DNA from: a phage
NCBI GenBank assembly: GCA_033178465.1
Contig: GCA_033178465.1_4726.5
Reading direction: 5' to 3' (one strand)
Length of the DNA: 32,613 nucleotides
The notes below the pieces were generated by a model, which saw nothing but the letters and a program-made list of their open reading frames with translations, was not told the DNA's origin and ran no database searches. Position numbers and translations under genes: made by a program. Positions 819-30,333 of the stretch are shown piece after piece (within the stretch, counting starts at the first letter, position 1; the number at the start of each line of letters is the position of its first letter).

Positions 819-838
819 GCCCTCCCTTCGGGGAGGGC
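819..838 (+). terminator. GC-rich stem-loop (GCCCTCCC-TTCG-GGGAGGGC) followed by TTATGCTG box; terminator-like or regulatory
   Basis: Perfect 8-bp stem with UUCG-type tetraloop immediately after the stop of 252..809; no clear U-tract. Confidence 0.4.
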
Positions 839-875
839 TTATGCTGCGTTACCAGCACCTGTTAAGGAGATAAAG

Positions 876-1151
876 ATGTCTCGATCATCGACACAACCTG
901 ACCCCTGGAAGCGATTTCTTAAGGAGCTTCATTATCATGTTGCAGCTCGACCGGGTTTGAGCGCACACCAAATGGAAATCGTTCTACGGGCGTTACTCAC
1001 ACGACACCCTCAAGTTACACGTATTAAATCATTCATTGGATCTGGAGAGTTCTATGCTTGCAAAAACTGTTTTAGCCATCGTGACCATTACATCTACTTC
1101 TATTATCGCGCGGTTCCTTCGTCGATGACGGGTCGCGGCGTGGATTTTTAA
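876..1151 (+). CDS. hypothetical protein
   Basis: Track ORF 810..1151 trimmed to the ATG at 876, which is preceded by AAGGAGA (865-871); the upstream TTG start would lie in the hairpin. Confidence 0.55.
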   Translation: MSRSSTQPDPWKRFLKELHYHVAARPGLSAHQMEIVLRALLTRHPQVTRIKSFIGSGEFYACKNCFSHRDHYIYFYYRAVPSSMTGRGVDF

Positions 1152-1200
1152 CGCACGCGGCTATGGTAAAAATTAACGGTTTTTCATGTTCGTATAGGAC

Positions 1201-1662
1201 ATGAAAACAAACAATAAAGGCGTTAGAATGAAGAATTCCATTGTTCGTCACGATTCGGATCGCGGGTTTTTTATCGATACGGATATCCTTCACGATATTT
1301 ATTTCAACGATGATCGTGAATTAGCTGAGCTTGTAGACCAGCGCTCGGAGACAATCATCGCCGCCGGAGGAATATTTAAACCTCAGCGATGGGAGGGGCT
1401 TGATGTGAGTATCCGCCCCACCATCAGCCGAGAAACGCCTTTTGAATTACTCTTTATTTTCTCACCCCGATCGTTACCCGATGAGCAGCCGACAACGTTA
1501 TCCTTAACGGCTGAAGTTGGTTATTGGTCGTACCATATCGAACAAAACGGTGTGGTACGTGAGGGTACGCTCGAACCGTCAGAATTAAAGAAGTTTCTTG
1601 GTACAGTCAAAGACCAAGAACGTAAACGTAACCGTGCAATACGGAAACAAAACCGGAATTAA
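1201..1662 (+). CDS. hypothetical protein
   Basis: Track ORF; alternative in-frame ATG at 1228; no recognisable motif. Confidence 0.5.
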   Translation: MKTNNKGVRMKNSIVRHDSDRGFFIDTDILHDIYFNDDRELAELVDQRSETIIAAGGIFKPQRWEGLDVSIRPTISRETPFELLFIFSPRSLPDEQPTTLSLTAEVGYWSYHIEQNGVVREGTLEPSELKKFLGTVKDQERKRNRAIRKQNRN

Positions 1663-1717
1663 TTTATTAGCAATCTCGACCACAGAAATCGGTCACTTTT
1701 AATAGGAATCGAAAAGA

Positions 1718-2239
1718 ATGAAAAAGTTGTTTCTTGCGGCTTTATTTGTTACGGCATCAGCACATGCTTGGGATTACAGCGAGCTGGAAACCGGACACGC
1801 TAAACTAGGCACGATGTATACCTGGTCATCGGCGGAAGTCAGCGCACCAACCGCCTTGGAAGTTAACTGTTTGTCTACGGGAGGCGCGTGGGTAAAACTG
1901 GATACGGAAGATGAAGGTTATCAGGCACCTCTTCTTCGTGACTATCCGGGTATCGTTAAAATCACGATTGGAACCGCTGAAGGAATCAGTTATTTCAATG
2001 GAGAAACCGATCTTAACTTCTGGTCGAAGGGCGGACAACAACGTTTGGTGAACTTCGTTAATGAACTGAACCAGGCGTTGACCATTTCAGTGTTAACCGA
2101 CGACGGTAAAACTTATCGCGTTCGTCCGATCGAACCGGAGATGCGGATTGATGTCCGTAAATGCCCAGCGGGCGTGCCAGCAATGGTTGATCCCAACACG
2201 CGTACTGTACGTACACCTGAAGAATTGAACGCACTTTAA
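1718..2239 (+). CDS. secreted protein with N-terminal signal peptide
   Basis: N-terminus MKKLFLAALFVTASAHA-W has a basic n-region, hydrophobic core and AxA cleavage site. Confidence 0.6.
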   Translation: MKKLFLAALFVTASAHAWDYSELETGHAKLGTMYTWSSAEVSAPTALEVNCLSTGGAWVKLDTEDEGYQAPLLRDYPGIVKITIGTAEGISYFNGETDLNFWSKGGQQRLVNFVNELNQALTISVLTDDGKTYRVRPIEPEMRIDVRKCPAGVPAMVDPNTRTVRTPEELNAL

Positions 2240-2254
2240 CATGGAGGAAGGTGG

Positions 2255-2518
2255 ATGGATACGCCCATCCACCTTCACGAGGCTATTATGGCGAAGAAAC
2301 CAAAGAAACGTAATAAGAGATACAATCCGAATAAACGTTCGAAGTTTACGCTGGTTTACATGACGGACACTGAGTTCCAGGAAGCCAATCGACGTCATCG
2401 TTGTCTACGGGAAGCTTACCTCAATGAACATGGCTCTAAGGTTCTAACGGCTGCTGACGATGTTCCTGAAGAACAGTTTACCGATATTCAGTTATTCTTA
2501 TCAAAAGGAATTCAATAA
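2255..2518 (+). CDS. hypothetical basic protein
   Basis: Track ORF; GGAGGA 8 nt upstream of ATG; lysine/arginine-rich N-terminus KKPKKRNKRYNPNKR. Confidence 0.5.
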   Translation: MDTPIHLHEAIMAKKPKKRNKRYNPNKRSKFTLVYMTDTEFQEANRRHRCLREAYLNEHGSKVLTAADDVPEEQFTDIQLFLSKGIQ

Positions 2519-3474
2519 TGAAAACGCTTATTGATACGACATGCCCTCATTGCGGACATGACATTTCGTTAGCATCGATTCGTTACGATATGTTTTCGGA
2601 TATGCCGTTGCCGAACACGTGCTATGTTTGTACTAACTGCTTGAAAACCGTAAAGGTATTTGTTGTCGATAATAGCGCAGAACGCCATATTTCGTTTTTG
2701 CCATCGGATGAAAAACACGAAGCGATTTGGTCGATTATTTTCTCTAATACAACTCGCCCAACCAATCCGTTTGTTTCCAGCACATCGATGGCTGTTGATG
2801 TCGATTGTTTTATGTCTGAGTTAACCTTGGGCACCGTCGAATATATTAACGCGATCGCTGATCTTTATATTGGTCAGTCGTTGAATCAGGGGCATCTGTC
2901 ACCAAACGGGACTCTCTGCATCGAAGGAGACAACTACGAAGAGGCGATGTCGCATTACCGCACGCATCTGACGATACCCATGCGTTACATTAGCGATATT
3001 CAAGAAGCCGCACTTTTCGCAACCGATCTTGCGTGGTTATTTAATGCGGTTATTCATCAAGCAAATGATGGTACGTTGTTGCAGAAAGTTGATGGTAAGA
3101 TCGGCTGGTGTCATAGCGTGCGTAGTGCGGTTATGATCGATTACTTATTACGTAATCGGTGGATTGCTCAACTGTTTAATTATTGGTATCAATACGTCTT
3201 GGATTATGACGTTGAGCCGGTTCTTTACAGTGCTGATGGTAGCGTCTGGTTGTCGCACGGGTTTGTTAAAGGGCTGGATGTTGATGAACCCCTGTTCCTC
3301 TATCCAAGAGGATTTCGGGAACTAACGTTTGATGAGGCAATGGAACTGTTAAAACAGGATAACCCCGTCAACTACCATGAAGAGAACGCTCGTCGATTCA
3401 GTCCTGATCGTAAAGCGACGAATCTGTCCGACAGCAATGCTTCGATAATTCCAGCAGATCGTGTCTTGCATTAA
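2518..3474 (+). CDS. hypothetical protein with N-terminal zinc-ribbon
   Basis: CPHCGH ... CYVCTNC gives two C-x2-C pairs near the N-terminus; start overlaps upstream stop (TAATG). Confidence 0.6.
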   Translation: MKTLIDTTCPHCGHDISLASIRYDMFSDMPLPNTCYVCTNCLKTVKVFVVDNSAERHISFLPSDEKHEAIWSIIFSNTTRPTNPFVSSTSMAVDVDCFMSELTLGTVEYINAIADLYIGQSLNQGHLSPNGTLCIEGDNYEEAMSHYRTHLTIPMRYISDIQEAALFATDLAWLFNAVIHQANDGTLLQKVDGKIGWCHSVRSAVMIDYLLRNRWIAQLFNYWYQYVLDYDVEPVLYSADGSVWLSHGFVKGLDVDEPLFLYPRGFRELTFDEAMELLKQDNPVNYHEENARRFSPDRKATNLSDSNASIIPADRVLH

Positions 3475-3489
3475 CAAAGGGGTCTCGGT

Positions 3490-4332
3490 GTGAAAATTAG
3501 TTATCAGGAACAGGATCATCGCTGTAAACATTGTGATAAAGATCTTAGTAAACCGATGCTTGCAGCATACGGTCAACACGAACCAACGGTGGTATGTGAT
3601 GACTGCGCAAGCCGCTACTCACTTGTGCGTGAGGGTGACGATGAGGGTATCCAACTTAAGCTACGTGATACCCATGAACATCGACTTCGTGTTGTCGCGG
3701 TACTGGCTCCACCGTACCAGAAAGGGGAACCACGTAAAGCGGCATGGACGTTCGCGGAGTTCGATGTGGCGATTGATAAACCGATTACGAAAGGTCTTTC
3801 ACCGTTCAACGATATCGTTGAGTATAACAACATCAAGAACGCGGTTGCTGATTTGCTTCCATTATCACCACACAGTTGTGTCTATGGGGTTGGAACGTTA
3901 CCGCAGGTGTGTTGTGTCTTACCACGAGAAACATATATATCGTTAGGTGCCCGACAACTGATTAAGTTCTTTGGGGTATACGACGATATGCTGAGTAAGA
4001 TCGGTGAGCTTCTGGTTACCATGTCGAAAACCAAAGACGTTAGCCGGAAGAACAAAGATGTGCGTATTAGTCATGCGGTTTGTGCGCATCTGATGGCGGG
4101 GTCGATGTGGTTGGGTGATTACGCTAACACGGTTATTAGCCAGCTCCCCATTTCGTACGAGGTTGTGTTTAAAGACGGCGTGTTCTACGGCGTGCGTCGT
4201 AAAGATACGGCTTTCCAGCTGAAGAATATCATTCTCGACCTACCTATCGATCATCTTATCGCCAATGTTATTTCTGATCCCTCACGCGTTGTCGACATGA
4301 TACGTGGAAAACTAAAAGGTAACCCAGCATGA
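3490..4332 (+). CDS. hypothetical protein with N-terminal zinc-ribbon
   Basis: GTG start after AAAGGGG; CKHCD ... CDDC pairs of cysteines at the N-terminus. Confidence 0.55.
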   Translation: MKISYQEQDHRCKHCDKDLSKPMLAAYGQHEPTVVCDDCASRYSLVREGDDEGIQLKLRDTHEHRLRVVAVLAPPYQKGEPRKAAWTFAEFDVAIDKPITKGLSPFNDIVEYNNIKNAVADLLPLSPHSCVYGVGTLPQVCCVLPRETYISLGARQLIKFFGVYDDMLSKIGELLVTMSKTKDVSRKNKDVRISHAVCAHLMAGSMWLGDYANTVISQLPISYEVVFKDGVFYGVRRKDTAFQLKNIILDLPIDHLIANVISDPSRVVDMIRGKLKGNPA

Positions 4333-4640
4333 AACGACTATCTGCAAGACAGGTGTCGTTGTGTTACTACGGAATGGAGTACGATGCCTTAGCAAAATTG
4401 TTTCGTCAGTATCTTGAAGATCATCACCTTACCAACGACGATCTCTTTTCCTACTCTTATTTGAATTACCCAATTAACATGATACGTTATTCGGAAGCTG
4501 AAGGCGAGTACCTGGTGGTCGCTTCTGTTATGCGTTATCTGTTAATTGATCTATACAAACGTCTGTACCTGCCGGAGAGACTACGTATGCAAGAAACATT
4601 AAGGAGACTTCATAGTGAGCGTTCTACGGGAAGCGTTTAA
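4329..4640 (+). CDS. hypothetical protein
   Basis: Track ORF, ATGA overlap with upstream gene. Confidence 0.55.
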   Translation: MKRLSARQVSLCYYGMEYDALAKLFRQYLEDHHLTNDDLFSYSYLNYPINMIRYSEAEGEYLVVASVMRYLLIDLYKRLYLPERLRMQETLRRLHSERSTGSV

Positions 4641-5211
4641 GTTCGTCGCTGGAGAACAGACCGACGATGATATTCGGCGATTCATGGCGTATATCGCACC
4701 GCTGAGTCACGATGGGGTTCCAGGACATAATGTGTTCCTGCCGCTGAGGGGTGTTTCGACAACAGCCGCCTATGTCCGTCTGTTAACAGAGATGTTGCGG
4801 ATTAGCGAGCATCCTGGCGGCACCAACCGTGTTAGCTTGAAAGGGCTTGCTGAGCAGTTATCTTACATGCCTGTTATCCGTGAGAAACCATCATGGGCGG
4901 AAGAACGTCGCGCGTTAACCCTGATACGCAATCTGGATTCTGATGCTTGGCGTGAGAACCTCATCACGTATTTGTTGATCATCAAACGTCGTCAGAAACC
5001 GGCGAAGAGTCTGCTCATTATTGATGATAAAGACCCGAACGTCGATTTGGTTGAGATCACACGAGCAATAAGCGCGTTGACCGGTGAATCAATCAATCCT
5101 AAACTTGAACCGTTGGACGCAATCCGTCAGATGGTCAGTGTGTTATCTGGTAATACTGCGTTTGTCAATATTTGTAGTAATTACGATAAAGAAAAGGAGG
5201 GTATACGTTGA
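4615..5211 (+). CDS. hypothetical protein
   Basis: Track ORF; GTG start preceded by AAGGAGA; overlaps upstream gene end. Confidence 0.5.
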   Translation: MSVLREAFKFVAGEQTDDDIRRFMAYIAPLSHDGVPGHNVFLPLRGVSTTAAYVRLLTEMLRISEHPGGTNRVSLKGLAEQLSYMPVIREKPSWAEERRALTLIRNLDSDAWRENLITYLLIIKRRQKPAKSLLIIDDKDPNVDLVEITRAISALTGESINPKLEPLDAIRQMVSVLSGNTAFVNICSNYDKEKEGIR

Positions 5212-5549
5212 TAGACAGTATTGAACTTAATGAAGAGCAACCATTATCGGTTGTACAACAACTTTTAGCGCAGCATGAGCTTGTTTGGTCGGAAGAGCGT
5301 ACGCCATGTGAAGAATGTCGCTATAACCACGTTGTCGCTGAGACCGTTTTTGGTTCTTTAACTATCGAATGGAAAGGTTGGAAGGATTATACCAGCTACG
5401 ACTGCGATTTACCTTTCCCAGTCAACGAGGAGTTTCCGCACATCAACGCAGATAGTTTAGATGAAGCGAAAGCAAAAGTAAAAGCCTGGTACGACTACGT
5501 GATATTAGCTGGACTTGGTCTGGCTGCTAATAAACCAGAACTGAACTAA
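5208..5549 (+). CDS. hypothetical protein
   Basis: Track ORF; TTG start preceded by AAGGAGGG. Confidence 0.5.
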   Translation: MIDSIELNEEQPLSVVQQLLAQHELVWSEERTPCEECRYNHVVAETVFGSLTIEWKGWKDYTSYDCDLPFPVNEEFPHINADSLDEAKAKVKAWYDYVILAGLGLAANKPELN

Positions 5550-5574
5550 TTTGATTTCGATGAGGTATAATAAA

Positions 5575-6804
5575 ATGGCTTTAACCATCACAATCGACAA
5601 TAAAGAACTTAATCCCGCAGAAACATTAATGTACGCGGCAATTGCGACATTACCTAATCTTGACGCTGAAAAACTGTTTAAGGTACACGGCGATGATCTA
5701 CTCAACATTATCCATGATCAGATCGACCCGATAACACCAGAAGAAATAAAGGGGAACAAAGAACTCCACGAAGAAATTAAAAGAGGAGAGTATTATACGT
5801 ATCACGGTTTCATGACGTTATTTCAAGAAGATACGTCGCATCTTCACGAGATAACACTTCGACATTATCTGCGTTGCGCTATTTACCGACTGATGAATCA
5901 TCGTGAAGAAACACATAAAGCGCTGGCCCAATCGTTCCAGGAACATATTTTTGAGGCTCCATACAAACCGTTAGATATCTTTTATATCTTTTACTCAATT
6001 AGTTGTTGTGTCAACGACCAAGTAATGTTGCTAATTAAGCAGAACTACCGTGAACTTATACCTTTGCTAAGTAAATTGGGTATTGATTTAGTAGCAGAGA
6101 ATATAACATTCTCCCAGTTCATCCAAGAGACGTTCCTTGGTGCTAAGCTAGCACCACGATATGAGGGACGCTTTGATTTTTCAACGGTAGAGAAGCCCGC
6201 TTTTTGTCTGGATGTTGAGAATCTCAGTCTGGAAAAGAACGGGGTACTGCTGGAAATCGGTATGGTGTTCTTTGATCTAGCTAACCCAGAATCTGTTATT
6301 AACGGCCCACGTATAGATATCTTCCCTGACATTCATGGTCAAATCGCTGACGGTGGTCGTATCAGTGAATCAACAGTAGAATGGTGGCAAACCAAAGCAC
6401 CGAAGGAAGCGCGTGACTATTGTTTTCAACATTGTAAGGTGGTGGGTTATAAAGAAGCCATCACCGAAGTAAACGTGTTTGTTAACACAATTCGTGATGT
6501 GCTTACTGATTACTACGGTAAGGATACCTTCTATTATCTTGCTCGTGGTGAAACAGATTGGCCTCAATTAGAGCATTGGTTCCGTAAAGCAGGCTTTAAG
6601 CCAGTTTGTCGTTATAACCAGGTTCAGGATATTCGTTCGATGATTGCCGCGTATCAAGACAAACCGGTATCCATCTTAGGCACCAAAGAGTATCCAGATA
6701 TGGGTATTCCGTTGATCCGTCATACCGCTATCGGTGACGCGATCATGGATGCGTATGACGTTGCGATGGCGCGAAGCATGGCGGTGTCTAAGCTTTTGAA
6801 GTGA
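5575..6804 (+). CDS. DEDDh-type (DnaQ-like) 3'-5' exonuclease domain protein with N-terminal extension of unknown function
   Basis: Track ORF 5551..6804 trimmed to the ATG at 5575 after GAGGT; C-terminal half has Exo I-like FCLDVEN (D-x-E) and Exo III-like HTAIGDAIMDAYD (H-x4-D). Confidence 0.6.
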   Translation: MALTITIDNKELNPAETLMYAAIATLPNLDAEKLFKVHGDDLLNIIHDQIDPITPEEIKGNKELHEEIKRGEYYTYHGFMTLFQEDTSHLHEITLRHYLRCAIYRLMNHREETHKALAQSFQEHIFEAPYKPLDIFYIFYSISCCVNDQVMLLIKQNYRELIPLLSKLGIDLVAENITFSQFIQETFLGAKLAPRYEGRFDFSTVEKPAFCLDVENLSLEKNGVLLEIGMVFFDLANPESVINGPRIDIFPDIHGQIADGGRISESTVEWWQTKAPKEARDYCFQHCKVVGYKEAITEVNVFVNTIRDVLTDYYGKDTFYYLARGETDWPQLEHWFRKAGFKPVCRYNQVQDIRSMIAAYQDKPVSILGTKEYPDMGIPLIRHTAIGDAIMDAYDVAMARSMAVSKLLK

Positions 6805-6855
6805 TAGCATCCTGCGCAATGAATATGACGATGATCGTTTATTAAAGGAAAGAAG

Positions 6856-7170
6856 ATGTCTGAAAAGCATATTGAGATTCTTGATGCAGCCATCGCTTCG
6901 AAAGATAGCGGTACATTCATCAAAGCGGTATTTGTAGAGCAGCGTAATAACCCAGCAACGCTGAATAAAATTCGTGATGCAATCGCATTCCGTCTTACCA
7001 AGTCAGATATTTCTGATGCGGATAAAACAACGATGCGTAAATTACGCGACGATCTTAATGCATACATCGCCCGTGGTTGTACAGATAAAACCGTTCGCGA
7101 GGTTCTCGATTCTAACGTGAAATACGAATCCGACTTCAAGAAGAACGGTTCAACACCGAAAACAGAATAA
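6856..7170 (+). CDS. hypothetical protein
   Basis: Track ORF; AAAGGA 7 nt upstream of ATG. Confidence 0.55.
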   Translation: MSEKHIEILDAAIASKDSGTFIKAVFVEQRNNPATLNKIRDAIAFRLTKSDISDADKTTMRKLRDDLNAYIARGCTDKTVREVLDSNVKYESDFKKNGSTPKTE

Positions 7171-7179
7171 CAGCATATT

Positions 7180-7211
7180 CCCTCCTCCAACCCGTAAGGG
7201 AAGGAGGAGGG
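7180..7211 (+). terminator. GC-rich stem-loop (CCCTCCTCC..CCC-GTAA-GGG..GGAGGAGGG) followed by TTATGTTCG; terminator-like or regulatory
   Basis: 9-bp outer stem, AA/AA internal loop, 3-bp inner stem with GNRA-type tetraloop, directly after the stop at 7170. Confidence 0.4.
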
Positions 7212-7233
7212 TTATGTTCGTATTGAGGTTAAC

Positions 7234-7533
7234 ATGCTTGATCGTGAACGATTGAAGAAAACGACAAAGCTCCTCGATGAGTTCAGAACCGCAGGTGAAT
7301 TCGAGAGCTTCACTAAGAACCGGGCTATCGTTCGGTTCCTTCTTTATTTGTGTTGCGTTGATTCGTCGGAGCGGGTTAGCCATAGTTGCCCTCTGCTCGA
7401 CGAAAATCGTATTCCGCTGTACAAAGCCGAAGAGTTATGTGCGTTTTTGATGAAATTCGGTGTTTTCTGCAACAGATATCGTGGTGATAGATCCGATGGG
7501 TATCTCGTCGAATTTAATGTCTTGTTTCAGTAA
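7234..7533 (+). CDS. hypothetical protein
   Basis: Track ORF, cysteine-rich, no recognised motif. Confidence 0.5.
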   Translation: MLDRERLKKTTKLLDEFRTAGEFESFTKNRAIVRFLLYLCCVDSSERVSHSCPLLDENRIPLYKAEELCAFLMKFGVFCNRYRGDRSDGYLVEFNVLFQ

Positions 7534-7607
7534 AACATTACCAAAATAGACTATCTAATGAGGTGAAATTCCTCAATACTACTACTAGGACTACTAAGGA
7601 ATAAAAC

Positions 7608-8141
7608 ATGAGTGTTATCGTAAAAGTAATGGGCAACTGCGATACTAGCGACCGTAACAATGCAAAACCGTTTACGTTGCATGTGGTGCCTGACCGTTTG
7701 ACAACTATCGAATTCAATCGTGATTCACTGGGTAGACCGACACTGGAGTTCGTCGCTCATGGTGATAAGGATCAACGATTTATCGATTACCCGGGCGGTA
7801 ACGTTTACGTGATGGACAACGGTAATACCATCGCAACGTATGCCTATTCCTGTGGTTTTGGGAAGGATGATGTTGACCGTATGTATGCAGACGTCCGTGC
7901 TACGACGTATGGGGAAGTGCTGGATGCAAGTGGTAAACTTGACGATAACCTCATTCGTGCGTTGTTGGAAATACGCTTAATCGATCGTGATATAAAACAA
8001 ACGCGTCACATCGAGTTTGTAAAATCAGACAATCCTAACTTTGTTAGTCACGTAAATCGTCTTTTACAAGAGTTGTTTACTGGTAAATTAACAGCATATT
8101 ACGCCGGTGCGAGCGGCAAAATCATCGCGATCGTTAAGTAG
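7608..8141 (+). CDS. hypothetical protein, paralog of 8227..8775
   Basis: AAGGA upstream; N-terminus ...NNAKPFTLHVVPDRLTTIEFNRD...YAYSCGF aligns with the next gene. Confidence 0.6.
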   Translation: MSVIVKVMGNCDTSDRNNAKPFTLHVVPDRLTTIEFNRDSLGRPTLEFVAHGDKDQRFIDYPGGNVYVMDNGNTIATYAYSCGFGKDDVDRMYADVRATTYGEVLDASGKLDDNLIRALLEIRLIDRDIKQTRHIEFVKSDNPNFVSHVNRLLQELFTGKLTAYYAGASGKIIAIVK

Positions 8142-8226
8142 TAATCCCTACGAGGGGGTGGATAATACCTCCTCAATTTGTTGTACTATCTATCATTTCT
8201 ATTATCTATTATCATGAGGTTCTATT

Positions 8227-8775: not shown

Positions 8776-8786
8776 GTTGATTGATG

Positions 8787-8809
8787 AAGCCTCCCGTAAT
8801 GGGAGGCTT
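8787..8809 (+). terminator. rho-independent-like terminator (AAGCCTCCC-GTAAT-GGGAGGCTT) followed by TTTATGCCG
   Basis: 9-bp stem followed by T-rich CTTTTAT, 12 nt after the stop at 8775. Confidence 0.5.
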
Positions 8810-10160: not shown

Positions 10161-10171
10161 ATTAACAACTG

Positions 10172-10191: not shown

Positions 10192-10207
10192 AATACGGAG
10201 GACTATC

Positions 10208-22959: not shown

Positions 22960-22960
22960 C

Positions 22961-23389
22961 ATGAGCTGGTTCGATCGTAAATTCTTCACGTTGGAAGAAG
23001 TCTTGGACCTACCTTGCGACGCGAATAAGGAAAAGATCGCCGACATGCAACGAATCGCACTAACTCACGCGATTAATGATGTCTCACAGTTCTCTATCGG
23101 TGATCGTGTTGAGCTTCCGTTCGGAACCGGAGAAGAAGGAGATAACACAGCGGTTAAATTCGTTCCCGCCGTTGTCGTGGGTGTCCATTTCACGACATCA
23201 CAAGTCAGTTATGATCTTGCGATACCTATCGATGGTTGTGACTTGTTTATGGTCTTCAACAATTTCCGTGGTGATATGCGTACGATAGACGGAAGCAATG
23301 CGACCGATTTCATCGAGAAACGTGTTGCCGAAGCGTTGGTGAAGAAAACGCTCGGTACACCGAATCTTAAAGTTATTGAAAATGAATAA
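22961..23389 (+). CDS. hypothetical protein
   Basis: Track ORF; AAGGAG 7 nt upstream of ATG. Confidence 0.55.
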   Translation: MSWFDRKFFTLEEVLDLPCDANKEKIADMQRIALTHAINDVSQFSIGDRVELPFGTGEEGDNTAVKFVPAVVVGVHFTTSQVSYDLAIPIDGCDLFMVFNNFRGDMRTIDGSNATDFIEKRVAEALVKKTLGTPNLKVIENE

Positions 23390-23394
23390 TCGTA

Positions 23395-23413
23395 CCCTCC
23401 CGACATGGGAGGG
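23395..23413 (+). terminator. GC stem-loop (CCCTCCC-GACAT-GGGAGGG) followed by CTTATGCCG; terminator-like or regulatory
   Basis: 7-bp stem 6 nt after the stop at 23389; same architecture as the hairpins at 819 and 30254. Confidence 0.4.
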
Positions 23414-23437
23414 CTTATGCCGATAAAAGGAAACAAA

Positions 23438-24088
23438 ATGAACGATGTTATCGCATTACTCACGCAAGGCGAAACCAAAATGCCGTTGCCGTACCAGCAG
23501 CTTGCTGCTATCTTAGAACCGATGACGCACCATCAACAATGGATTGTCCGTGAAGAATATACCCAACACGTCGGATGGTCGTTGTTAACCATGGATACCG
23601 CGCTCCAGTTAGCAAACATCTGTTACGGGCGACGTGTTGCTGACCTGGGTTGTGGGACAGGTTACCTGACCTATGTGTTGCGTAAACTTGGTGTTGAGGA
23701 CATTACCGCTTACGATACGGAATTACATCCCCACCCGTTTATCGAGGACATTCAGCAAGCCGACTACACAAACATCGATCTTTCACAGTACGACGTTATT
23801 CTACTGTCATGGCCACCTTACGACGAACCACAAGCTGCATTGGTTGCCGCACGTATCCAACCTCACCAGCTTTTGGTCTATCAGGGTGAAGGATACGGAG
23901 GCTGCACTGGAGATGACACCTTCCATTCGATGCTTCGTTCGGATTTTGCCTCTGTGGAAGAATTTACTGTGAACTTAAATGCACGCCATTTGAACTTTTA
24001 CGGTATATACGACTCATGGGAGGTTTATCGCAAGCAATCAGAATTTACAAAACAAAAGGATGATTTGGAAGATATGCGTCATGAATGA
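23438..24088 (+). CDS. class I SAM-dependent methyltransferase, small amino-methyltransferase-like with PPY motif
   Basis: Track ORF 23405 trimmed to the ATG at 23438 after AAAGGA; motif I VADLGCGTGYL, acidic motif II ITAYDTE, motif IV LLSWPPY. Confidence 0.75.
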   Translation: MNDVIALLTQGETKMPLPYQQLAAILEPMTHHQQWIVREEYTQHVGWSLLTMDTALQLANICYGRRVADLGCGTGYLTYVLRKLGVEDITAYDTELHPHPFIEDIQQADYTNIDLSQYDVILLSWPPYDEPQAALVAARIQPHQLLVYQGEGYGGCTGDDTFHSMLRSDFASVEEFTVNLNARHLNFYGIYDSWEVYRKQSEFTKQKDDLEDMRHE

Positions 24089-24113
24089 AGGAAAAGAAAT
24101 GGAGGACCGTTTT

Positions 24114-24785
24114 ATGTTAATCGTAACTAGCAGACAGGAAGTATCTGACTGGCTTAACACTCATCTTAACGCTAACGCCTCCCCAGGGGGCGTTGTGATC
24201 AATCCCGTTTATAATGGGCTGCCGTTCAAAGCTCGATATGAACGAGGTGCGTTGGTATCTGCGAAAGTGAATGACGTCTCATTAAATCCAGAACATGCTT
24301 TACGCGTATTTCGTATTCCGTTAACGATCAATTATCGCGGTTTAGCAAAAGTGATGGTCGTTTCTGGTACGGTATGTAAATACGCTGAAGCGTCTATCGA
24401 TGATTTTCATAATGGGGTAAGACACTTTAGTGCGGTCGCTGTAGGTTATCCTGAAGCTGATCGGGTTGAGGTTATCGAACAGGGATCTACAGCTATTCCG
24501 TCCGACGTGTTTAAACTGCGTTGTTTGTTCGAGACTTGGCGATTAGCCAGCTTCAAACAGTCGCGAATCGTTCCTCATCGAACCGTATCGGATGCGCTAC
24601 GGCAGCTTGATGTGATCGTCGCAACGTTAAATCGGACAAAAGGTATTTCTGCGTTGTTGTTCTCGTTGAACAGTCCAGACGACCGTTCACGAACGCAGAA
24701 TCCAGACTGTGTGTTCTTAACCCCGGAAGGAGTTATCCATGGTTTACCGAAGAAGTCTCTGGAAGATAAGATGGCAACGTCTTAA
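24114..24785 (+). CDS. hypothetical protein
   Basis: Track ORF 24060 trimmed to the ATG at 24114, 7 nt after GGAGGA; in-frame ATGs at 24081 and 24099 are alternatives. Confidence 0.5.
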   Translation: MLIVTSRQEVSDWLNTHLNANASPGGVVINPVYNGLPFKARYERGALVSAKVNDVSLNPEHALRVFRIPLTINYRGLAKVMVVSGTVCKYAEASIDDFHNGVRHFSAVAVGYPEADRVEVIEQGSTAIPSDVFKLRCLFETWRLASFKQSRIVPHRTVSDALRQLDVIVATLNRTKGISALLFSLNSPDDRSRTQNPDCVFLTPEGVIHGLPKKSLEDKMATS

Positions 24786-24829
24786 GTGGTTATGTAAAGA
24801 GAAATGGAAAAAGATAAAGAGGGCTTTAA

Positions 24830-25429
24830 ATGACAGTGGTGAGTATTACTGAGCCGCGGTTTATCCGCGAAGTTATCGACCGTCGTCGATCGGTGATCGT
24901 TGCTTACGGACGAATGGAAAGTACCGCACCTCAAGAACTTTGCGTGCTATTCCAGGGGTGTTTCATACACCGACAGGAAGGCCATAAGGGTAAAATCGTC
25001 CCTAGTGATTTGATTAAAGCAATGCGTAAGATAGATGTTGAACAACGCAAGCTGAATCTATCGCATCGTCTGCCTCCCCTCGATGAGGCCGAAGCCAAAG
25101 ACTTCGCAGATCGGGTTATGAAATCAGCTATCGTTCAGTACTTCGGAAACATGCCAAGCAAACGTAATAAAGCTTTACGTGTTGAATCCGATCAGCTGTT
25201 GCATTGGAATTCGAAAGCGTTCCGATTCGAAGAGGTGTTCTTACCCACTTTCGGTAAACGGCTGGCGTGGGACTTCTCAACAGAGTATGTTTACAACGGC
25301 GACATCCCGCCAGAAATACAACATAAGAAAGGGAAAGCACTAGAAGAGCAAACAGAAGCTGCAGTCATCGAACAGGTTTACCAGCGTCTGACATTCTGGT
25401 TGTTCGGACCAATACTGGAACCTAAGTAA
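24830..25429 (+). CDS. hypothetical protein
   Basis: Track ORF; AGAGGG 7 nt upstream of ATG. Confidence 0.55.
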   Translation: MTVVSITEPRFIREVIDRRRSVIVAYGRMESTAPQELCVLFQGCFIHRQEGHKGKIVPSDLIKAMRKIDVEQRKLNLSHRLPPLDEAEAKDFADRVMKSAIVQYFGNMPSKRNKALRVESDQLLHWNSKAFRFEEVFLPTFGKRLAWDFSTEYVYNGDIPPEIQHKKGKALEEQTEAAVIEQVYQRLTFWLFGPILEPK

Positions 25430-25510
25430 AAAAAAACATTACACACCAAATAACTTTTTAATACCCGGTAAATCCTCCTTATCTAAACATATTTCAAAAG
25501 GACAGTAATC

Positions 25511-25957
25511 ATGCAAATTACAAAAGCAGAACGTATCGAAATTTTCAAAACCACAAAAACCAACGAACAGAATCGAATCGCTAACAATACTCGACTGGTT
25601 GCTCGAATGTTGCGTGCAGGCTACGAGCAAGCCTCTCGATTTACCAGCCACTTAAAGCAGACCGGCATTGCTTATTACGACGAAGATAAAGATATTCTGA
25701 TTTACACCGGATGGATCGAAAACCATTGCTGGTGCGATCATGGACATGCGATAATGCACCTGCTCCCAAGCGGTAACGTTAGCGTAACGTTTACACTAAC
25801 GCCGTTGATGGTACGTCGTGCATTCCGCATGAATAACTTCATGGAGCTGCAGGCGTATGTTCCGGTAGCCGCCAAAATGGTATTACCGACGATCCATGAT
25901 TGCACGGATATCGTATTCGATGGAAAAGACCTATCCGTCACGTACTATTTAGATTGA
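25511..25957 (+). CDS. hypothetical protein
   Basis: Track ORF; AAGGA upstream; preceded by an 80-nt AT-rich intergenic region. Confidence 0.55.
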   Translation: MQITKAERIEIFKTTKTNEQNRIANNTRLVARMLRAGYEQASRFTSHLKQTGIAYYDEDKDILIYTGWIENHCWCDHGHAIMHLLPSGNVSVTFTLTPLMVRRAFRMNNFMELQAYVPVAAKMVLPTIHDCTDIVFDGKDLSVTYYLD

Positions 25958-25964
25958 GGGAAAG

Positions 25965-26921
25965 ATGATGGCTGCGCTAACGCCCAGATACTTCACCTTC
26001 GTTTGCGGTAATAAACCGAAATTCAGTTACAGTGATGATATCCATCGCATGCTACGTAACCGCGTAGCAAAAGTGCTGATTGCACTCATTTCGGAGCGTT
26101 ACGGGTTTGGTCTCGATTACCCCAAAGAAGGAGGTCGACTGGCTGCCCCGTTACCACCGAATGATCATCCGTTACGCCCGTTAGTAGATACGGTGATTCT
26201 TCCACTGTTCACTGAACAGACACCCCTAACAAAAAGTTTATGTCGTCATTTGCTCTATGATTACAGTGTGCTGTGGGAGCCATTACGTACGATGCAACCA
26301 CCGCGTAATTTAGGCGTATTTGACAAGTATGAAATATCAGCCATTGTTAATCTGCTTGGTGGTGAACAGGCTTTAGGTTGGCACGTTGTCGACGAACTTA
26401 CGATAAGTTGGGAGGTGAGTAACGTCACAGATTACGATATAGACCGTAAACAAATCTGTCTTTGGGAGCATACCGGCCCGACAGTGCAAGAACTGCTCGA
26501 TATGCCCAATCTCTTCTACACGGGAGTGTTACGGGGTTATCGGCCCGGGGATAAGGACTTCTACCTCGAAAATCATCGATGGTTAACACGATACGGGCAC
26601 ACTTTAACCTACCCAAAACTTGAAGAAATGGGTAATAATGTTTGGTGTATCCGTAATTTAGCCATTCTTCCGGATAACGAGCATTTTGCGAAAATACTTG
26701 CAGATAAAGGAGGTACGGAAGATATTTACAGCGTGTGTTTTGATTTAGGCGTCGCCTGTATCTTTCGTATCGCTGACGTCGGAGGGAGTCCACGCATCGA
26801 GATGGTTGAACGTTATCGTTGGACAGAAGGTGCGATACCACCTGATGAAATACTCAAACTTTTCCCTGAGGTTGTGGTTAAACGGATTAATGAGATCCAA
26901 CCCTACTTAGCAAAAGCGTGA
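25965..26921 (+). CDS. hypothetical protein
   Basis: Track ORF; GAGGGA upstream of ATG; 318 aa. Confidence 0.55.
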   Translation: MMAALTPRYFTFVCGNKPKFSYSDDIHRMLRNRVAKVLIALISERYGFGLDYPKEGGRLAAPLPPNDHPLRPLVDTVILPLFTEQTPLTKSLCRHLLYDYSVLWEPLRTMQPPRNLGVFDKYEISAIVNLLGGEQALGWHVVDELTISWEVSNVTDYDIDRKQICLWEHTGPTVQELLDMPNLFYTGVLRGYRPGDKDFYLENHRWLTRYGHTLTYPKLEEMGNNVWCIRNLAILPDNEHFAKILADKGGTEDIYSVCFDLGVACIFRIADVGGSPRIEMVERYRWTEGAIPPDEILKLFPEVVVKRINEIQPYLAKA

Positions 26922-26958
26922 ATAGGTTAATACATTAATTTTCACGGCTATATTACTT

Positions 26959-26989
26959 AGGTGAAGCAATGCAGTAATCAGCTTCACCT
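26959..26989 (+). terminator. stem-loop (AGGTGAAGC / GCTTCACCT) with 13-nt loop
   Basis: 9-bp perfect stem in the 108-nt gap after 25965..26921; no U-tract. Confidence 0.35.
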
Positions 26990-27029
26990 TGAACTATTAG
27001 CAACCAATCCGATATAAGAGGATGTCAAG

Positions 27030-27347
27030 ATGAGTATGTTTAAAATGGCTGTATTTGCTATTCGTAATAATCGCGATATCTTAGGTCATTTGGAAGCTGA
27101 CGCTGAAGGAACACTGATTCGTTTCATGCGTCGTGTTAAAGAAGCCTTTGATAATCGCGAGTATCTCGTGGAAGTTGTTGAGGACCTTCCACCGAACTCG
27201 ATGCGTTTTGTCGCTATCGATGGATCTGCAACCGACATCCGTTTCATCACCGTTAACGGAACAATGATGATGTTTTCGGGCGATGATACTGTTACAGGGC
27301 TGTTTCCAATCGTAACGGTTCTGGGTCATTTCTTACGTGCAAACTAA
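27030..27347 (+). CDS. hypothetical protein
   Basis: Track ORF; AAGAGGA upstream of ATG. Confidence 0.55.
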   Translation: MSMFKMAVFAIRNNRDILGHLEADAEGTLIRFMRRVKEAFDNREYLVEVVEDLPPNSMRFVAIDGSATDIRFITVNGTMMMFSGDDTVTGLFPIVTVLGHFLRAN

Positions 27348-27351
27348 TCAG

Positions 27352-27370
27352 GTCCCCCTAAATGGGGGGC
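27352..27370 (+). terminator. GC stem-loop (CCCCC-TAAAT-GGGGG core) followed by TTTATACCG and T-rich sequence
   Basis: 5-7 bp G/C stem 5 nt after the stop at 27347, followed by CTTTATACCGATTTTATTT. Confidence 0.45.
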
Positions 27371-27405
27371 TTTATACCGATTTTATTTCAATAAGGATCT
27401 TTATC

Positions 27406-27828
27406 ATGAAACTGTTCAAAAATATCGTATTCGCTATCGTCACCACTCTGGCTTTTGTTAGCACGCAAGCACAGGCTAACTGGATGGCTCGTGGGAATAA
27501 CTGCTACGCCTACAGCGAAGACGGTCGTTATCAGATTGGTATCTCCGATCGCTCGCTTGTTGTCATGGGTCAATTTCAATGCAGTGCGCACTATCCGATG
27601 TCTGATACCGTAGGAATCAATGGACGTGTATACCAAGCATTGAATATCTGCAGTCCTGACATGCGTTTGATTCCGGTTATTAGCCTTGCGAATACAGATC
27701 AAGCTGCTAATGCAATCGCCAGCCTTAAAGAAGCACGTCGTGCGCGTATTCGTGCGTTTAACGAAACCATCATCGTAAATACCGATGATATTCAGGCATG
27801 CGCTAACAGTGTAGCGGCCGTACGTTAA
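27406..27828 (+). CDS. secreted protein with signal peptide
   Basis: Track ORF 27337 trimmed to the ATG at 27406 after AAGGAT; N-terminus MKLFKNIVFAIVTTLAFVSTQAQA-N is a typical Sec signal. Confidence 0.6.
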   Translation: MKLFKNIVFAIVTTLAFVSTQAQANWMARGNNCYAYSEDGRYQIGISDRSLVVMGQFQCSAHYPMSDTVGINGRVYQALNICSPDMRLIPVISLANTDQAANAIASLKEARRARIRAFNETIIVNTDDIQACANSVAAVR

Positions 27829-27866
27829 TACTAAATTGGTTTATTTAAGTTATTAAGGAAACGATC

Positions 27867-28217
27867 ATGAAAACGTTAACTAAATTGTTTGTTGCTGTTG
27901 CTATTCTGTTCAGTAGTGTTGTCGGTTCAGCGCAGGCTGGGTTGCTGGATAGCCCAGAAGTTTACGATAAAGCAAAAGCAATCTACATGGCCATGGAGAG
28001 CATGACGCCAGCAGACCTTGAAGAATGCGGTGTTGATTTCGGTATCCCGAAAGAACTCCCTGGAGTTAAGAACCCTACCAACCCCAGCGTGAAATTGAAA
28101 GTGGCAGACTTCGAAGTTTTCAACCCCTCTTTCAAGACCTACGCGCGGGTTCGTATACTTGTTGATCCAGCAACCGGTGTTGTTCAGGGCGGTGAATATC
28201 TCTATCTGGGTAAATAA
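27867..28217 (+). CDS. secreted protein with signal peptide
   Basis: AAGGA 8 nt upstream; N-terminus MKTLTKLFVAVAILFSSVVGSAQA-G. Confidence 0.6.
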   Translation: MKTLTKLFVAVAILFSSVVGSAQAGLLDSPEVYDKAKAIYMAMESMTPADLEECGVDFGIPKELPGVKNPTNPSVKLKVADFEVFNPSFKTYARVRILVDPATGVVQGGEYLYLGK

Positions 28218-28235
28218 TTGAGTAAGGACAATACG

Positions 28236-28445
28236 ATGATTCCAGCTAACCCTCTTTTAAGTCTCAATCCTTTCCATAGCAATCCTGGTGTCGATCCGAT
28301 ACAGCCTGCTTTTTTATCACAGTTCCAGGCTGATTATGATGGCGATGTGGTAACTCGAACCCGTATCCGTCTGTTGAATCACCGCAAGAAAGGCCCAGGT
28401 AAAGGCAAAGTAAAAATCATTCAACGTTTAATCTCTTATGTATAA
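28236..28445 (+). CDS. small basic protein, KKGPxKGK family
   Basis: Track ORF 28218 (TTG) trimmed to the ATG at 28236 after TAAGGA; contains HRKKGPGKGKVKII, same patch as the 10532-11098 trio. Confidence 0.45.
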   Translation: MIPANPLLSLNPFHSNPGVDPIQPAFLSQFQADYDGDVVTRTRIRLLNHRKKGPGKGKVKIIQRLISYV

Positions 28446-28464
28446 ACCAACATTGTTCGATAAG

Positions 28465-28486
28465 TGCCGCCTACATATGGGCGGCA
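28465..28486 (+). terminator. stem-loop (TGCCGCC / GGCGGCA, 8-nt loop)
   Basis: 7-bp GC-rich stem 20 nt after the stop at 28445. Confidence 0.35.
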
Positions 28487-28618
28487 TTGCTCTGGTCTTT
28501 ATGTTGTACAACAGTTGTCAAGGAGGTATGTGGGTACGTGCGTTATTAATCGCACTCGCGTTAGCGGTGTTTCTAAAATTTGAATCATCGCTTTATCAGA
28601 AAAAGTAAGAAGGAGTTC

Positions 28619-28813
28619 ATGATGGGACATATGCTACTACGGGGATTAACGGGGATGGTTTTAGCATGGATGGTGATTGGGTTTTGTGGGATGATGTTCT
28701 TCATGGTAGATGAACCGGCTGCCCGAATTAACGTAGGGTTATGGTTCGTCTTCCTGATGATAGCGGTATTCGTTATCGTTACCTTGTTGAGGAATGTAGG
28801 AAAACACAAATAA
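28619..28813 (+). CDS. small membrane protein, two predicted TM helices (holin-like size class)
   Basis: Track ORF 28580 trimmed to the ATG after AAGGAG; hydrophobic stretches GLTGMVLAWMVIGFCGMMFFMV and LWFVFLMIAVFVIVTLL. Confidence 0.5.
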   Translation: MMGHMLLRGLTGMVLAWMVIGFCGMMFFMVDEPAARINVGLWFVFLMIAVFVIVTLLRNVGKHK

Positions 28814-28829
28814 ACGATCGGGAAAAGCC

Positions 28830-29201
28830 ATGAGTTTAAAGACATACGCAAAAATCTATTTCATTTTCACTTTTATAATGATTGGGATTTCTGCAACGAA
28901 TATCGATTTTGAAACAACGACGGAACGCGTTTATTACGTTATCCGAACCATCGTTTGTGTTATAGGGCAGCTTCCCCTTTTGTATATTTGTACGTGGTCG
29001 ACGCGTAACATCAGACGGTTTGTCGTGTATGGGTTCGCGTACGTTCTTTTCATGCTTGTTATGTGGCAGGTCGATGCTCGACTGAGTGATATCGCAAATA
29101 TCATCGCAACGGCGATCCTCAGTGCAACAAGCTGGTGTTTATTTTTACCGATGTGTCGTCGTGTCGAGGATGAAGGTTATGGGTATCACGGAGAATCTTA
29201 A
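28830..29201 (+). CDS. membrane protein, 3-4 predicted TM helices
   Basis: Track ORF; hydrophobic segments IYFIFTFIMIGI, IRTIVCVIGQLPLLYI, FVVYGFAYVLFMLVMW, IIATAILSATSWCLFL. Confidence 0.55.
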   Translation: MSLKTYAKIYFIFTFIMIGISATNIDFETTTERVYYVIRTIVCVIGQLPLLYICTWSTRNIRRFVVYGFAYVLFMLVMWQVDARLSDIANIIATAILSATSWCLFLPMCRRVEDEGYGYHGES

Positions 29202-29490
29202 GTTAACTAATCGCATCCTTGTCGATAGAGAAGTTGTTTTACGCGAGATACGAAGCGTGATGGCGATCTTTAATCTGGATCATCGATCCGCCATTATGTC
29301 TATTCTCTTGAATAAAACAACCTTTAATATCCGGGAGATACGTCGTATTCACAACGGTGTGGAGCGACGGCATAAATTAAGCGACGAACTCGTACATTGC
29401 GAGTTTATACCACATCAAGTCTATCGACGTATTTATCGCGATCCGTATGTTCGGGATAAATACAACCTATGGCTTGACGGTAGAGGTTAA
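29170..29490 (+). CDS. hypothetical protein
   Basis: Track ORF 29086..29490 trimmed to the first ATG near the end of the upstream gene; start uncertain (also ATG at 29179). Confidence 0.35.
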   Translation: MKVMGITENLKLTNRILVDREVVLREIRSVMAIFNLDHRSAIMSILLNKTTFNIREIRRIHNGVERRHKLSDELVHCEFIPHQVYRRIYRDPYVRDKYNLWLDGRG

Positions 29491-29507
29491 CATCTTTGAG
29501 AAACTAT

Positions 29508-29675
29508 ATGAATTCAAACGATGTACACCTTTACCGCGTTGGATACGGGAAATGGGTTCTGTTATCCAACGTTATGTTTATTGCCAAACCAGAGGAGACC
29601 GTATTTTCAGTACCGTTTATTTCTGTCGTGGATGTCGGGCAAACATCTGACGCTAACCTGCTGCCCGCTGAATAG
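29508..29675 (+). CDS. hypothetical small protein (55 aa); not in ORF track
   Basis: Hand translation MNSNDVHLYRVGYGKWVLLSNVMFIAKPEETVFSVPFISVVDVGQTSDANLLPAE; alternative to overlapping track ORF 29447..29650 in another frame. Confidence 0.3.
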   Translation: MNSNDVHLYRVGYGKWVLLSNVMFIAKPEETVFSVPFISVVDVGQTSDANLLPAE

Positions 29676-29742
29676 AACAACCCGATGACGGGATGCGTTA
29701 TCAAGACGCCAGTGGACAGCACCTTATCGTGAGGTTATTAAG

Positions 29743-30240
29743 ATGCAAGGTATTTTACACACGTTGATTTTAGGACTTGCTATGTTGCTTATCGCACCGT
29801 TCAGTCAAGCATCAGTGAACGCGGGGCCTAGAATCGATTGCCGGAAAGAGATCGTCGCATGTGCGGTGTATATGGAAGCCAGAGGCGAATCTGTAAAAGG
29901 GCAATACTCCGTGGCGTTTTTAATACATAATCGATCTATGGACTACCGATTCCCTACGAACGTCAGAGACGTCGTACTGCAAAGAGGTCAATTCCCCTGG
30001 ACAAAACAAAGGCGTATTGTCATACGCGATCACGCTGCTTTTGAGCGAGCAAGAGCAATAGCACGAGAGGTCGCAACATTACGTTATACTGACATTGCGG
30101 CTTACCATAAAGCCGACCCAACACGAGGAGCTGTATTCTTTAACGCGAAACATCTTCGCCCTAAACATTTCAGAAAACATGCTACCAATATCACCGTGGT
30201 AGATAGCCACATTTTCTTTGGTAAACGACGACACACGTAA
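29743..30240 (+). CDS. secreted SleB-like cell-wall hydrolase (Hydrolase_2 family), candidate endolysin
   Basis: GAGG upstream; signal peptide MQGILHTLILGLAMLLIAPFSQASVNA; signature CAVYMEARGES...GQYSVAFLIHNR...FPTNV...VVLQRGQFPW. Confidence 0.7.
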   Translation: MQGILHTLILGLAMLLIAPFSQASVNAGPRIDCRKEIVACAVYMEARGESVKGQYSVAFLIHNRSMDYRFPTNVRDVVLQRGQFPWTKQRRIVIRDHAAFERARAIAREVATLRYTDIAAYHKADPTRGAVFFNAKHLRPKHFRKHATNITVVDSHIFFGKRRHT

Positions 30241-30253
30241 AACAAATCCGTAT

Positions 30254-30280
30254 GCCCTTCCTGCGTAAGGCAGGAAGGGC
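30254..30280 (+). terminator. GC stem-loop (GCCCTTCCTGC-GTAAG-GCAGGAAGGGC) followed by TTATGCTG; terminator-like or regulatory
   Basis: 11-bp perfect stem 14 nt after the stop at 30240; same downstream box as at 819. Confidence 0.45.
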
Positions 30281-30333
30281 TTATGCTGTTAAACTGACTA
30301 AATGTAATCATCCTAATAAAGAAGGAAATCATC

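Follow-up and report, generated by a model that had tools for sequence, protein, structure and literature searches.

Intergenic hairpins with a conserved TATGYYG box as probable phiKZ-type terminators of an Escherichia jumbo phage

In a 32,613-nt stretch of phage DNA (contig GCA_033178465.1_4726.5 of GenBank assembly GCA_033178465.1; the window), a GC-rich hairpin followed by a short conserved box recurs at gene boundaries. These elements are very probably (probability roughly 0.85) hairpin-dependent terminators of the type known from phiKZ-like phages (Chimalliviridae), with a conserved TATGYYG box in place of the U-tract. Their anatomy, position, orientation and enrichment were observed directly in the DNA, as was their membership of this family by sequence and structure. 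The preliminary description of the element is correct, but most of the finding was already known, the element having been described and partly tested in the phages phiKZ and 201phi2-1. By analogy with these relatives, in which transcript 3' ends and reporter termination were shown, the copies of this phage would terminate transcription. Which polymerase they would act on (virion, non-virion or host) is likewise inferred.

Bases 1–25000 of the window were 96% identical, end to end, to the minus strand of Escherichia phage vB_EcoM_Goslar (237,307 bp; Goslar). Genes annotated in the Goslar record include those for a nuclear shell protein, the tubulin PhuZ and several beta subunits of RNA polymerase. 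Goslar is a phiKZ-like, nucleus-forming jumbo phage (Chimalliviridae-type) that encodes its own RNA polymerases.

Occurrence of the element in the window

Seven hairpin-then-box sites had been placed on the plus strand in the preliminary description (elements 1 to 7, in order of position). All seven were present, with the box directly after the hairpin; the position of element 4 was right as well, except that its box ends at 17301 and not at 17300. The box, given as TTATGCYG, is indeed conserved, but its core is really TATG(C/T)(C/T)G with a preferred preceding T. Elements 2 (TATGTTCG) and 6 (TATACCG) depart from strict TTATGCYG; TATG was found at six of the seven sites and TATA at element 6. 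Seven was not the full count, as an eighth element (hairpin, then TATGTTT, intergenic) had been overlooked at 29536–29579. The hairpin at 28463–28488 had been listed as boxless, and this proved wrong: TATGTTG is present 11 nt downstream, at 28500. The hairpin at 14489, listed likewise, does lack an intact box; it is followed by the degenerate ATACACTT in this phage, though the Goslar orthologue reads aTATGCTT.

TTATGCYG occurred eight times in the window, with 1.8 copies expected, and none of 100 shuffles reached eight. Seven of the eight copies were on the plus strand, five of these directly behind a hairpin. In an unbiased count of 4-mers behind strong hairpins, TTAT, TATG and ATGC ranked first, TATG following 17% of hairpins compared to 2.5% in the background. 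A chance origin was rejected by the excess over shuffles and by this post-hairpin enrichment.

The folding energies of the seven sites ranged from -14.7 to -25.5 kcal/mol (z of -2.3 to -5.9 relative to dinucleotide shuffles). A sliding fold at a loose threshold mostly returned weak long-range folds of coding regions, and an energy-density filter was applied for locally stable structures. The hairpins began 2–17 nt past a plus-strand stop codon at all seven sites and 45 nt past it at the eighth. The gap between stem and box was 0–2 nt at 7/7 sites, and a 5' arm of the CCCTCC type was found at elements 1, 2, 3, 5, 6 and 7. From the box to the next start codon, the distance was 18–50 nt, for example 18 nt at element 2 and 19 nt at element 5. 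Searching the whole window against Rfam at gathering thresholds yielded no match.

Match to mapped terminators of phiKZ and 201phi2-1

In phiKZ, Oxford Nanopore Technologies (ONT)-cappable-seq revealed the motif 5'-BCCYCCCCHWWDGGGRRGGBYTTATKYYGT-3', a stem-loop followed by TTAT, at 61 mapped termination sites, and most motif copies were classed as factor-independent terminators (Putzeys et al. 2024, Microlife; PMC10914365). In 201phi2-1, motif A (n = 59) "strongly resembles" the phiKZ motif, combinations with elongated stems (A/B) exist, and eight terminators were active in a two-reporter trap in uninfected P. chlororaphis (Microb Biotechnol 2024; PMC11512511). These experiments in relatives back the earlier proposal of a dedicated phage-specific signal, for which a terminator had been named first.

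The phiKZ 30-mer was matched within five or fewer edits by five of the seven sites; thirty simulated windows yielded two such matches in total. A covariance model with a seed of fixed geometry, built from nine phiKZ and 201phi2-1 copies only, found elements 7, 3, 2, 1 and 5 at E values of 0.0006–0.007 and element 6 at E = 0.16. As a control, 50 kb of T4 gave one partial hairpin match only. A MAFFT alignment of 25 phiKZ and 201phi2-1 copies, which vary in stem and loop length, yielded no consensus structure.

The 201phi2-1 terminators with transcription termination sites (TTS) at 183,876, 179,552 and 189,851 showed a termination efficiency above 99% in infection and were active in the reporter in uninfected cells (PMC11512511). 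Their respective sequences are ..GGAGGCTTTATGA[C], ..CTGGGCTTTATGC[C] and ..GGAGGTTATATG[C], the bracket marking the published TTS. At these three terminators, the RNA 3' end thus lies 1–2 nt past the G of TATG and 7–9 nt past the stem, as is usual for hairpin-dependent termination.

The window elements share with the phiKZ motif a C-rich 5' arm, a short loop, a G-rich 3' arm and, after 1–2 nt, TTAT(G/T)YYGT; both stand behind genes, in phages with multisubunit polymerases of their own. In contrast to phiKZ, the window phage has E. coli as host and a G+C content of 45% (37–38% in phiKZ), its box is more often TATGC(C/T)G where phiKZ prefers TATGT(C/T)GT, and a two-tier, long-stem sub-family occurs in addition in the window and in Goslar. 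The hairpin and TATG design is also that of 201phi2-1 motifs A and A/B, the elongated stem of A/B paralleling elements 2 and 4; however, the 201phi2-1 copies were reporter-tested in Pseudomonas, whereas those of the window are putative terminators.

The elements had also been described as not being canonical intrinsic terminators. This holds in that a long U-tract is missing. It does not hold with regard to function in the relative: 201phi2-1 copies terminate with the host polymerase in uninfected Pseudomonas and thus behave as factor-independent terminators. A G+C-rich hairpin and release about 7–9 nt past the stem are features shared with canonical intrinsic terminators. Unlike these, the window elements have no run of at least five U, carry a sequence-specific box conserved to 7–8 nt past the stem, and belong to a type strongly biased to a pyrimidine-rich 5' arm.

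Genome-wide survey in Goslar

Motif discovery and RNA folding over whole-genome intergenic regions had been proposed as a check of the element; run on Goslar, this check revealed intergenic and post-stop enrichment. Each TAT(G/A) was examined for a compact hairpin ending 0–6 nt upstream, with the coordinates of 246 coding sequences (CDS) taken from the annotation. The gene gp145 was excluded from the CDS set, as it overlaps the element 2 hairpin and looks spurious. The scan gave 139 hairpin and TATR matches, 95 of them in intergenic DNA, which makes up 7.2% of the genome. After removal of duplicates, 61 hairpin loci remained, 24 of which had a box on both strands. Among 85 strand-specific intergenic copies, 67 were sense elements that followed a gene on the same strand, at a median of 15 nt past the stop codon. 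These 67 comprised 38 in tandem and 29 in convergent contexts, and only two copies were located in divergent regions.

The aligned Goslar box was G-G-T-T-T-A-T-G-C-Y-G-T. A T preceded TAT in 44 of the 67 elements and a G followed it in 56, then C in 39, Y in 53 and G in 34; at convergent gene ends, the G of TATG was kept in 25 of 29 cases. The 5' arm was 76% pyrimidine and the 3' arm 75% purine. At tandem sites, the hairpin had the greater stability on the sense strand in 28 cases and on the antisense strand in 8 (p = 0.001), and G-U pairs numbered 37 in the sense fold and 8 in the antisense fold; both speak for a structure that acts in RNA and in the sense direction.

As a separate observation, TTATGCCGTCAAGCAAAAAA is present at both ends of the Goslar record (26–33 and 237278–237285), beside a terminal hairpin element. 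The paired copies suggest either that the termini are repeated or that the record was linearised arbitrarily within an element.

Conservation of the box across phages

The box was unchanged in nine of nine orthologous pairs of window and Goslar elements. Differences between the two were located in loops or flanks, or turned a closing G-C pair to G-U. Two hairpins had an interior that was exactly reverse-complemented relative to Goslar, with stems and flanks in place (7189–7202, AACCCGTAAGGGAA versus TTCCCTTACGGGTT; 30265–30269, GTAAG versus CTTAC in Goslar). These flipped interiors look like inversions mediated by the hairpin arms.

Behind hairpins, the 4-mers TTAT, TATG and ATGC also ranked first in phiKZ, 201phi2-1 and the Erwinia phage Ea35-70. 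The box was TATGTYGT in phiKZ, TATG(C/T)YG in 201phi2-1 and TATGCCG in Ea35-70. The hairpins of Ea35-70 are purine-first, yet the box is kept, so that its conservation does not depend on which sequence the stem has. Conservation of TATG behind terminator hairpins extends to at least four genera (Goslarvirus, Phikzvirus, Serwervirus and Agricanvirus). In the first 50 kb of T4 and of the related Salmonella jumbo phage SPN3US, TATG-type 4-mers were not on top after hairpins, and T-runs were found instead; judging by these 50 kb, the SPN3US lineage may have lost the box or exchanged it for another signal. An exact search of IMG/VR for CCCTCCC-N3-5-GGGAGGG-N0-2-TTATG matched contigs of 220–325 kb in 21 of the 36 cases listed, often with many copies per contig.

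The TATGYYG box is therefore common to jumbo phages of Escherichia, Pseudomonas and Erwinia, and is not shared by T4 or by the part of SPN3US examined. This distribution points to a constraint from the phage transcription machinery.

Proposed mechanism and points against it

A polymerase on a plus-strand gene would copy the pyrimidine-rich and then the purine-rich arm, and the nascent RNA would fold into a strong hairpin a few nt past the stop codon. Release of the transcript would occur about 7–9 nt past the stem, 1–2 nt after the G of (U)UAUGYYG. The box would stand in for the usual U-run, with UUAU providing a weak upstream hybrid. The consensus pause has the form G-10/Y-1/G+1. The Y-G step of the box (pyrimidine at position 5, G at position 6) may resemble the pyrimidine-then-G pause of multisubunit polymerases, and the G-rich stem bases about 10 nt upstream of this step would add to the likeness. 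The consensus pause acts across polymerases, with the pause at C before GMP addition (PMC6336406). In this way, the elements would split the long same-strand gene array into transcription units, and at convergent gene ends they would work in both directions.

Several points weigh against the elements being terminators of this kind. A literature search found no transcript-end data for Goslar or the window phage. The ONT-cappable-seq 3' ends of the relatives resolve to about 2 nt and can include processed ends. The comparison of sense and antisense stability in Goslar is somewhat biased, hairpins having been picked on the box-bearing strand. A scan for intrinsic terminators (hairpin plus at least five T in the 8 nt after the stem) called none of the seven sites, because their tails (TTATGCTG and similar) contain no T-run. 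Finally, at an efficiency above 99%, the tightly packed downstream genes would need promoters, and none is evident except TATG itself; the elements may thus be leaky or do more than terminate.

Alternative explanations

That the elements do more than terminate is the alternative that survives best, and it adds to the terminator reading without replacing it. Transcription of the upstream unit would stop at the hairpin, while TATG within the box would double as a start site for the non-virion polymerase, with initiation at the G, so that the next gene obtains a new 5' end 18–50 nt ahead of its start codon. Each element would then be a stop-restart punctuation mark. This is conceivable, yet rather unlikely. 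The non-virion polymerase of phiKZ requires 5'-TATG-3' and initiates at its G, every single substitution being strongly deleterious (PMC4666361), and the beta-like subunit of this polymerase binds the four TATG non-template bases specifically (PMC12809450). The core of the box is this very start-site motif, and 56 of the 67 Goslar elements have G as the fourth base of the box. In the window, 8–10 elements and only one early-promoter-like motif are distributed over about 60 same-strand genes, and often there is no room for another promoter between the box and the next start (18 nt at element 2, 19 nt at element 5). A G three bases past TATG was found at 25 of 38 tandem sites, but at 9 of 29 convergent sites (Fisher p = 0.007). 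In addition, a divergent region of Goslar contains a hairpin-free TATGCCG (197103), 25 nt ahead of the start of a structural gene.

However, TATG is kept equally at convergent ends (25/29), where only antisense RNA would result and where no downstream gene could be served, which argues against a pure promoter. The characterised phiKZ late promoter P119L has no hairpin; in contrast to it, the window box follows gene ends, including convergent ones, and its promoter role is a candidate one only. Late-promoter motifs have been published for both phiKZ and 201phi2-1, but they are short and weak (24 sites at E = 5e-8), which is not expected if many start sites stood behind GC-rich hairpins, and neither the phiKZ nor the 201phi2-1 paper reports start sites at terminators (PMC10914365, PMC11512511). 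Hairpin-free TTATGCYG was near chance in Goslar (about 22 observed, about 13 expected) and not significantly enriched before start codons (3 versus about 1 expected); as a promoter mark in Goslar, it had no statistical support. Moreover, the mapped 201phi2-1 3' ends lie past the G, and the same bases would need both roles.

Still unexplained is the fact that the core of the box and the start-site motif of the polymerase are identical. A tentative account, held no more probable than the restart itself, is that the start-site pocket of the polymerase captures TATG during elongation, causing a pause that would allow hairpin-driven release, re-initiation at the G, or both. No statement linking the terminator box to the start-site TATG was found in the papers examined.

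Less probable still is an RNA processing or stabilising element. Here, the polymerase would read through, an endonuclease would cut in the single-stranded UUAUG beside the stem, and the hairpin would guard the 3' end of the upstream mRNA. With an A/U-rich single strand behind a stable stem, the geometry does resemble that of RNase E-type sites, and 3'-end mapping alone cannot tell termination from processing. However, eight 201phi2-1 terminators, including three built in just this way, lowered expression of the downstream reporter when inserted between two reporter genes, which fits termination better than cleavage. Most motif copies were also classed as factor-independent terminators in the published analyses, and RNase E is not known to recognise the conserved G-Y-Y-G. 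Beyond this geometry, no support for a processing site was found.

A DNA-level repeat, either a palindromic extragenic sequence (REP-like or a miniature mobile element) or a binding site for a dimeric protein with a role in DNA organisation, replication or recombination, is very improbable. It would account for the many near-identical copies, such as the two-tier CCCTCCTCC..GGAGGAGGG sub-family, for the box on both strands at 24 of 61 Goslar loci, some between co-directional genes, for the frequent complementarity between the box and its upstream flank, which reads (G)CATA(A/T) or CGTAT, and for the two flipped hairpin interiors. Against it, the box is always on the coding strand at tandem sites, G-U pairs and stability favour the sense RNA, the elements lie at a median of 15 nt past stop codons with almost none in divergent regions, and in Ea35-70 the hairpin differs while the box is kept, which fits a signal read in the direction of transcription. 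A palindrome acting on DNA only was rejected on strand asymmetry. Published enhanced crosslinking and immunoprecipitation (eCLIP) data for ChmC (PMC11077065) show no motif and have no bearing on the element.

Implications

Read as terminators, the elements provide an initial outline of where transcription units begin and end among the approximately 60 unannotated same-strand genes of this phage. If the coincidence with the start site is functional, it bears on how a four-base promoter is used specifically and on how sigma-less polymerases terminate within the phage nucleus. In addition, the elements are predicted to be compact, strong terminator parts that could serve engineering in E. coli.

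Individual elements

Element 1 (819–846, plus strand) consists of the hairpin GCCCTCCC-TTCG-GGGAGGGC (819–838) and T-TATGCTG (839–846). It begins 9 nt past the stop codon at 809, and the next start codon is at 876. Its folding energy was -18.8 kcal/mol (z -2.87), its covariance-model E value 0.0018, and the hairpin is letter-for-letter that of the phiKZ terminator behind the major capsid gene gp120.

Element 2 (7180–7220, plus strand) is two-tier and bidirectional: CCCTCCTCC-AA-CCC-GTAA-GGG-AA-GGAGGAGGG (7180–7211) is followed by T-TATGTTCG (7212–7220). This hairpin also has AA-TATGCTG behind it when read on the minus strand (7177–7171), so that the whole element spans 7171–7220. It folded with -24.9 kcal/mol (z -4.4) and matched the covariance model at E = 0.0011 (minus) and 0.024 (plus). 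About a dozen near-identical copies of this sub-family occur in Goslar.

Element 3 (8786–8817, plus strand) comprises GAAGCCTCCC-GTAAT-GGGAGGCTTT (8786–8810) and TATGCCG (8811–8817), 10 nt past the stop codon at 8775 (-17.9 kcal/mol, z -4.35, E = 0.00066). It has three mismatches to the published 30-nt phiKZ consensus, and the annotation of its orthologue in Goslar is "putative transcriptional terminator".

Element 4 (17258–17301, plus strand) has the compound hairpin TGCCTGTG-T-CCC-T-CCC-ATCGC-GGG-T-GGG-CACGGGCG (17258–17293) and T-TATGCTG (17294–17301), with -24.8 kcal/mol (z -3.09). Owing to the length of its compound stem, it matched the covariance model only weakly (E = 6). As the stem was missing from the list of locally stable structures of the minus strand, it is strand-specific.

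Element 5 (23395–23422, plus strand) is formed by CCCTCCC-GACAT-GGGAGGG (23395–23413) and CT-TATGCCG (23414–23422), 5 nt past the stop codon at 23389; it folded with -14.7 kcal/mol, scored E = 0.0071 and is four edits from the phiKZ consensus. In element 6 (27350–27379, plus strand), AGGTCCCCC-TAAAT-GGGGGGCTT (27350–27372) is followed by the TATA-variant box TATACCG (27373–27379), with -16.4 kcal/mol, E = 0.16 and five edits from the consensus. Element 7 (30254–30288, plus strand), the best covariance-model match (E = 0.00064), consists of GCCCTTCCTGC-GTAAG-GCAGGAAGGGC (30254–30280) and T-TATGCTG (30281–30288), 13 nt past the stop codon at 30240 (-25.5 kcal/mol, z -5.93).

The overlooked element 8 (29536–29579, plus strand), with the hairpin GCGTTGGATACGGG..CTGTTATCCAACGT (29536–29572) and TATGTTT (29573–29579), lies 45 nt past the stop codon at 29490 (-17.9 kcal/mol, z -3.58); its Goslar orthologue is intergenic, between gp099 and gp098. 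At 28463–28506 (plus strand), the hairpin AGTGCCGCCTA-CATA-TGGGCGGCATT (28463–28488) is followed, after a longer spacer, by TATGTTG (28500–28506). This site is conserved in Goslar and scored E = 1.5; it is probably a variant of the element family, its membership being uncertain. In the degenerate site (14489–14507, plus strand), CCCCGTC-TTAAT-GGCGGGG precedes a box degraded to ATACACTT; the Goslar orthologue of this hairpin (127287–127305) keeps A-TATGCTT.

Sequences flanking stems on the upstream side (GCATATT, AGCGTATT, CGTA and GTAT) are able to pair with the box TTATG(C), partly via G-U pairs, within 7173–7217, 17251–17300, 23391–23419 and 30250–30286. In RNA, such pairing would lengthen the stem over the box. 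Many Goslar loci have the form CAGCATAA-hairpin-TTATGCTG.

The early-promoter-like motif of the window (26947–26964, plus strand) reads GCTATATTACTTAGGTGA and is a portion of the longer motif ttttcacggcTATATTACttaNgtga, of which Goslar has eight intergenic copies, 39–131 nt ahead of start codons, including that of the nuclear shell (chimallin) gene. The longer motif is probably an early promoter of the virion polymerase; the motif at 26947–26964 presumably matches the phiKZ early consensus. It is followed by a 5' hairpin (about 26960–26990), a single gene (27030–27347) and element 6, which closes the one-gene unit opened by this motif.

In six Goslar genes (gp111 and five others), the start codon was called at the ATG inside the TATG box, without a ribosome-binding site. 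In the window, the open reading frame (ORF) 23405–24088 has a more likely start at the ATG at 23438, which is preceded by AAAAGGAAA. Box-internal start codons are probably systematic mis-calls caused by the motif, and the elements serve to flag them.

Gene context of the window

All credible genes of the window are on the plus strand; the approximately 60 genes mostly encode small hypothetical proteins, while the other products include DNA ligase, thymidylate synthase, an exonuclease and an endolysin. The minus-strand ORF 7150–7383, equivalent to gp145, is the sole opposite-strand ORF annotated in the matching block of Goslar. It is likely to be spurious, as it overlaps the element 2 hairpin and competes with the plus-strand ORF 7234–7533.

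Sigma-70-like promoter matches were fewer than in shuffled sequences, both in 1–20000 (21 observed versus 36.8, standard deviation (sd) 5.9) and in 16000–32613 (13 versus 31.0, sd 6.6). This shortage suggests that host-type promoters are avoided.

Four unusually long non-coding gaps (165–252 nt) interrupt the tightly packed array, at 29491–29742, 14483–14671, 10502–10667 and 8776–8940. A hairpin element opens three of them, two with a box and one (14489) degenerate; none opens 10502–10667. The gaps may hold small RNAs or unannotated small genes, and the 38-aa gp128 is annotated inside one of them in Goslar.

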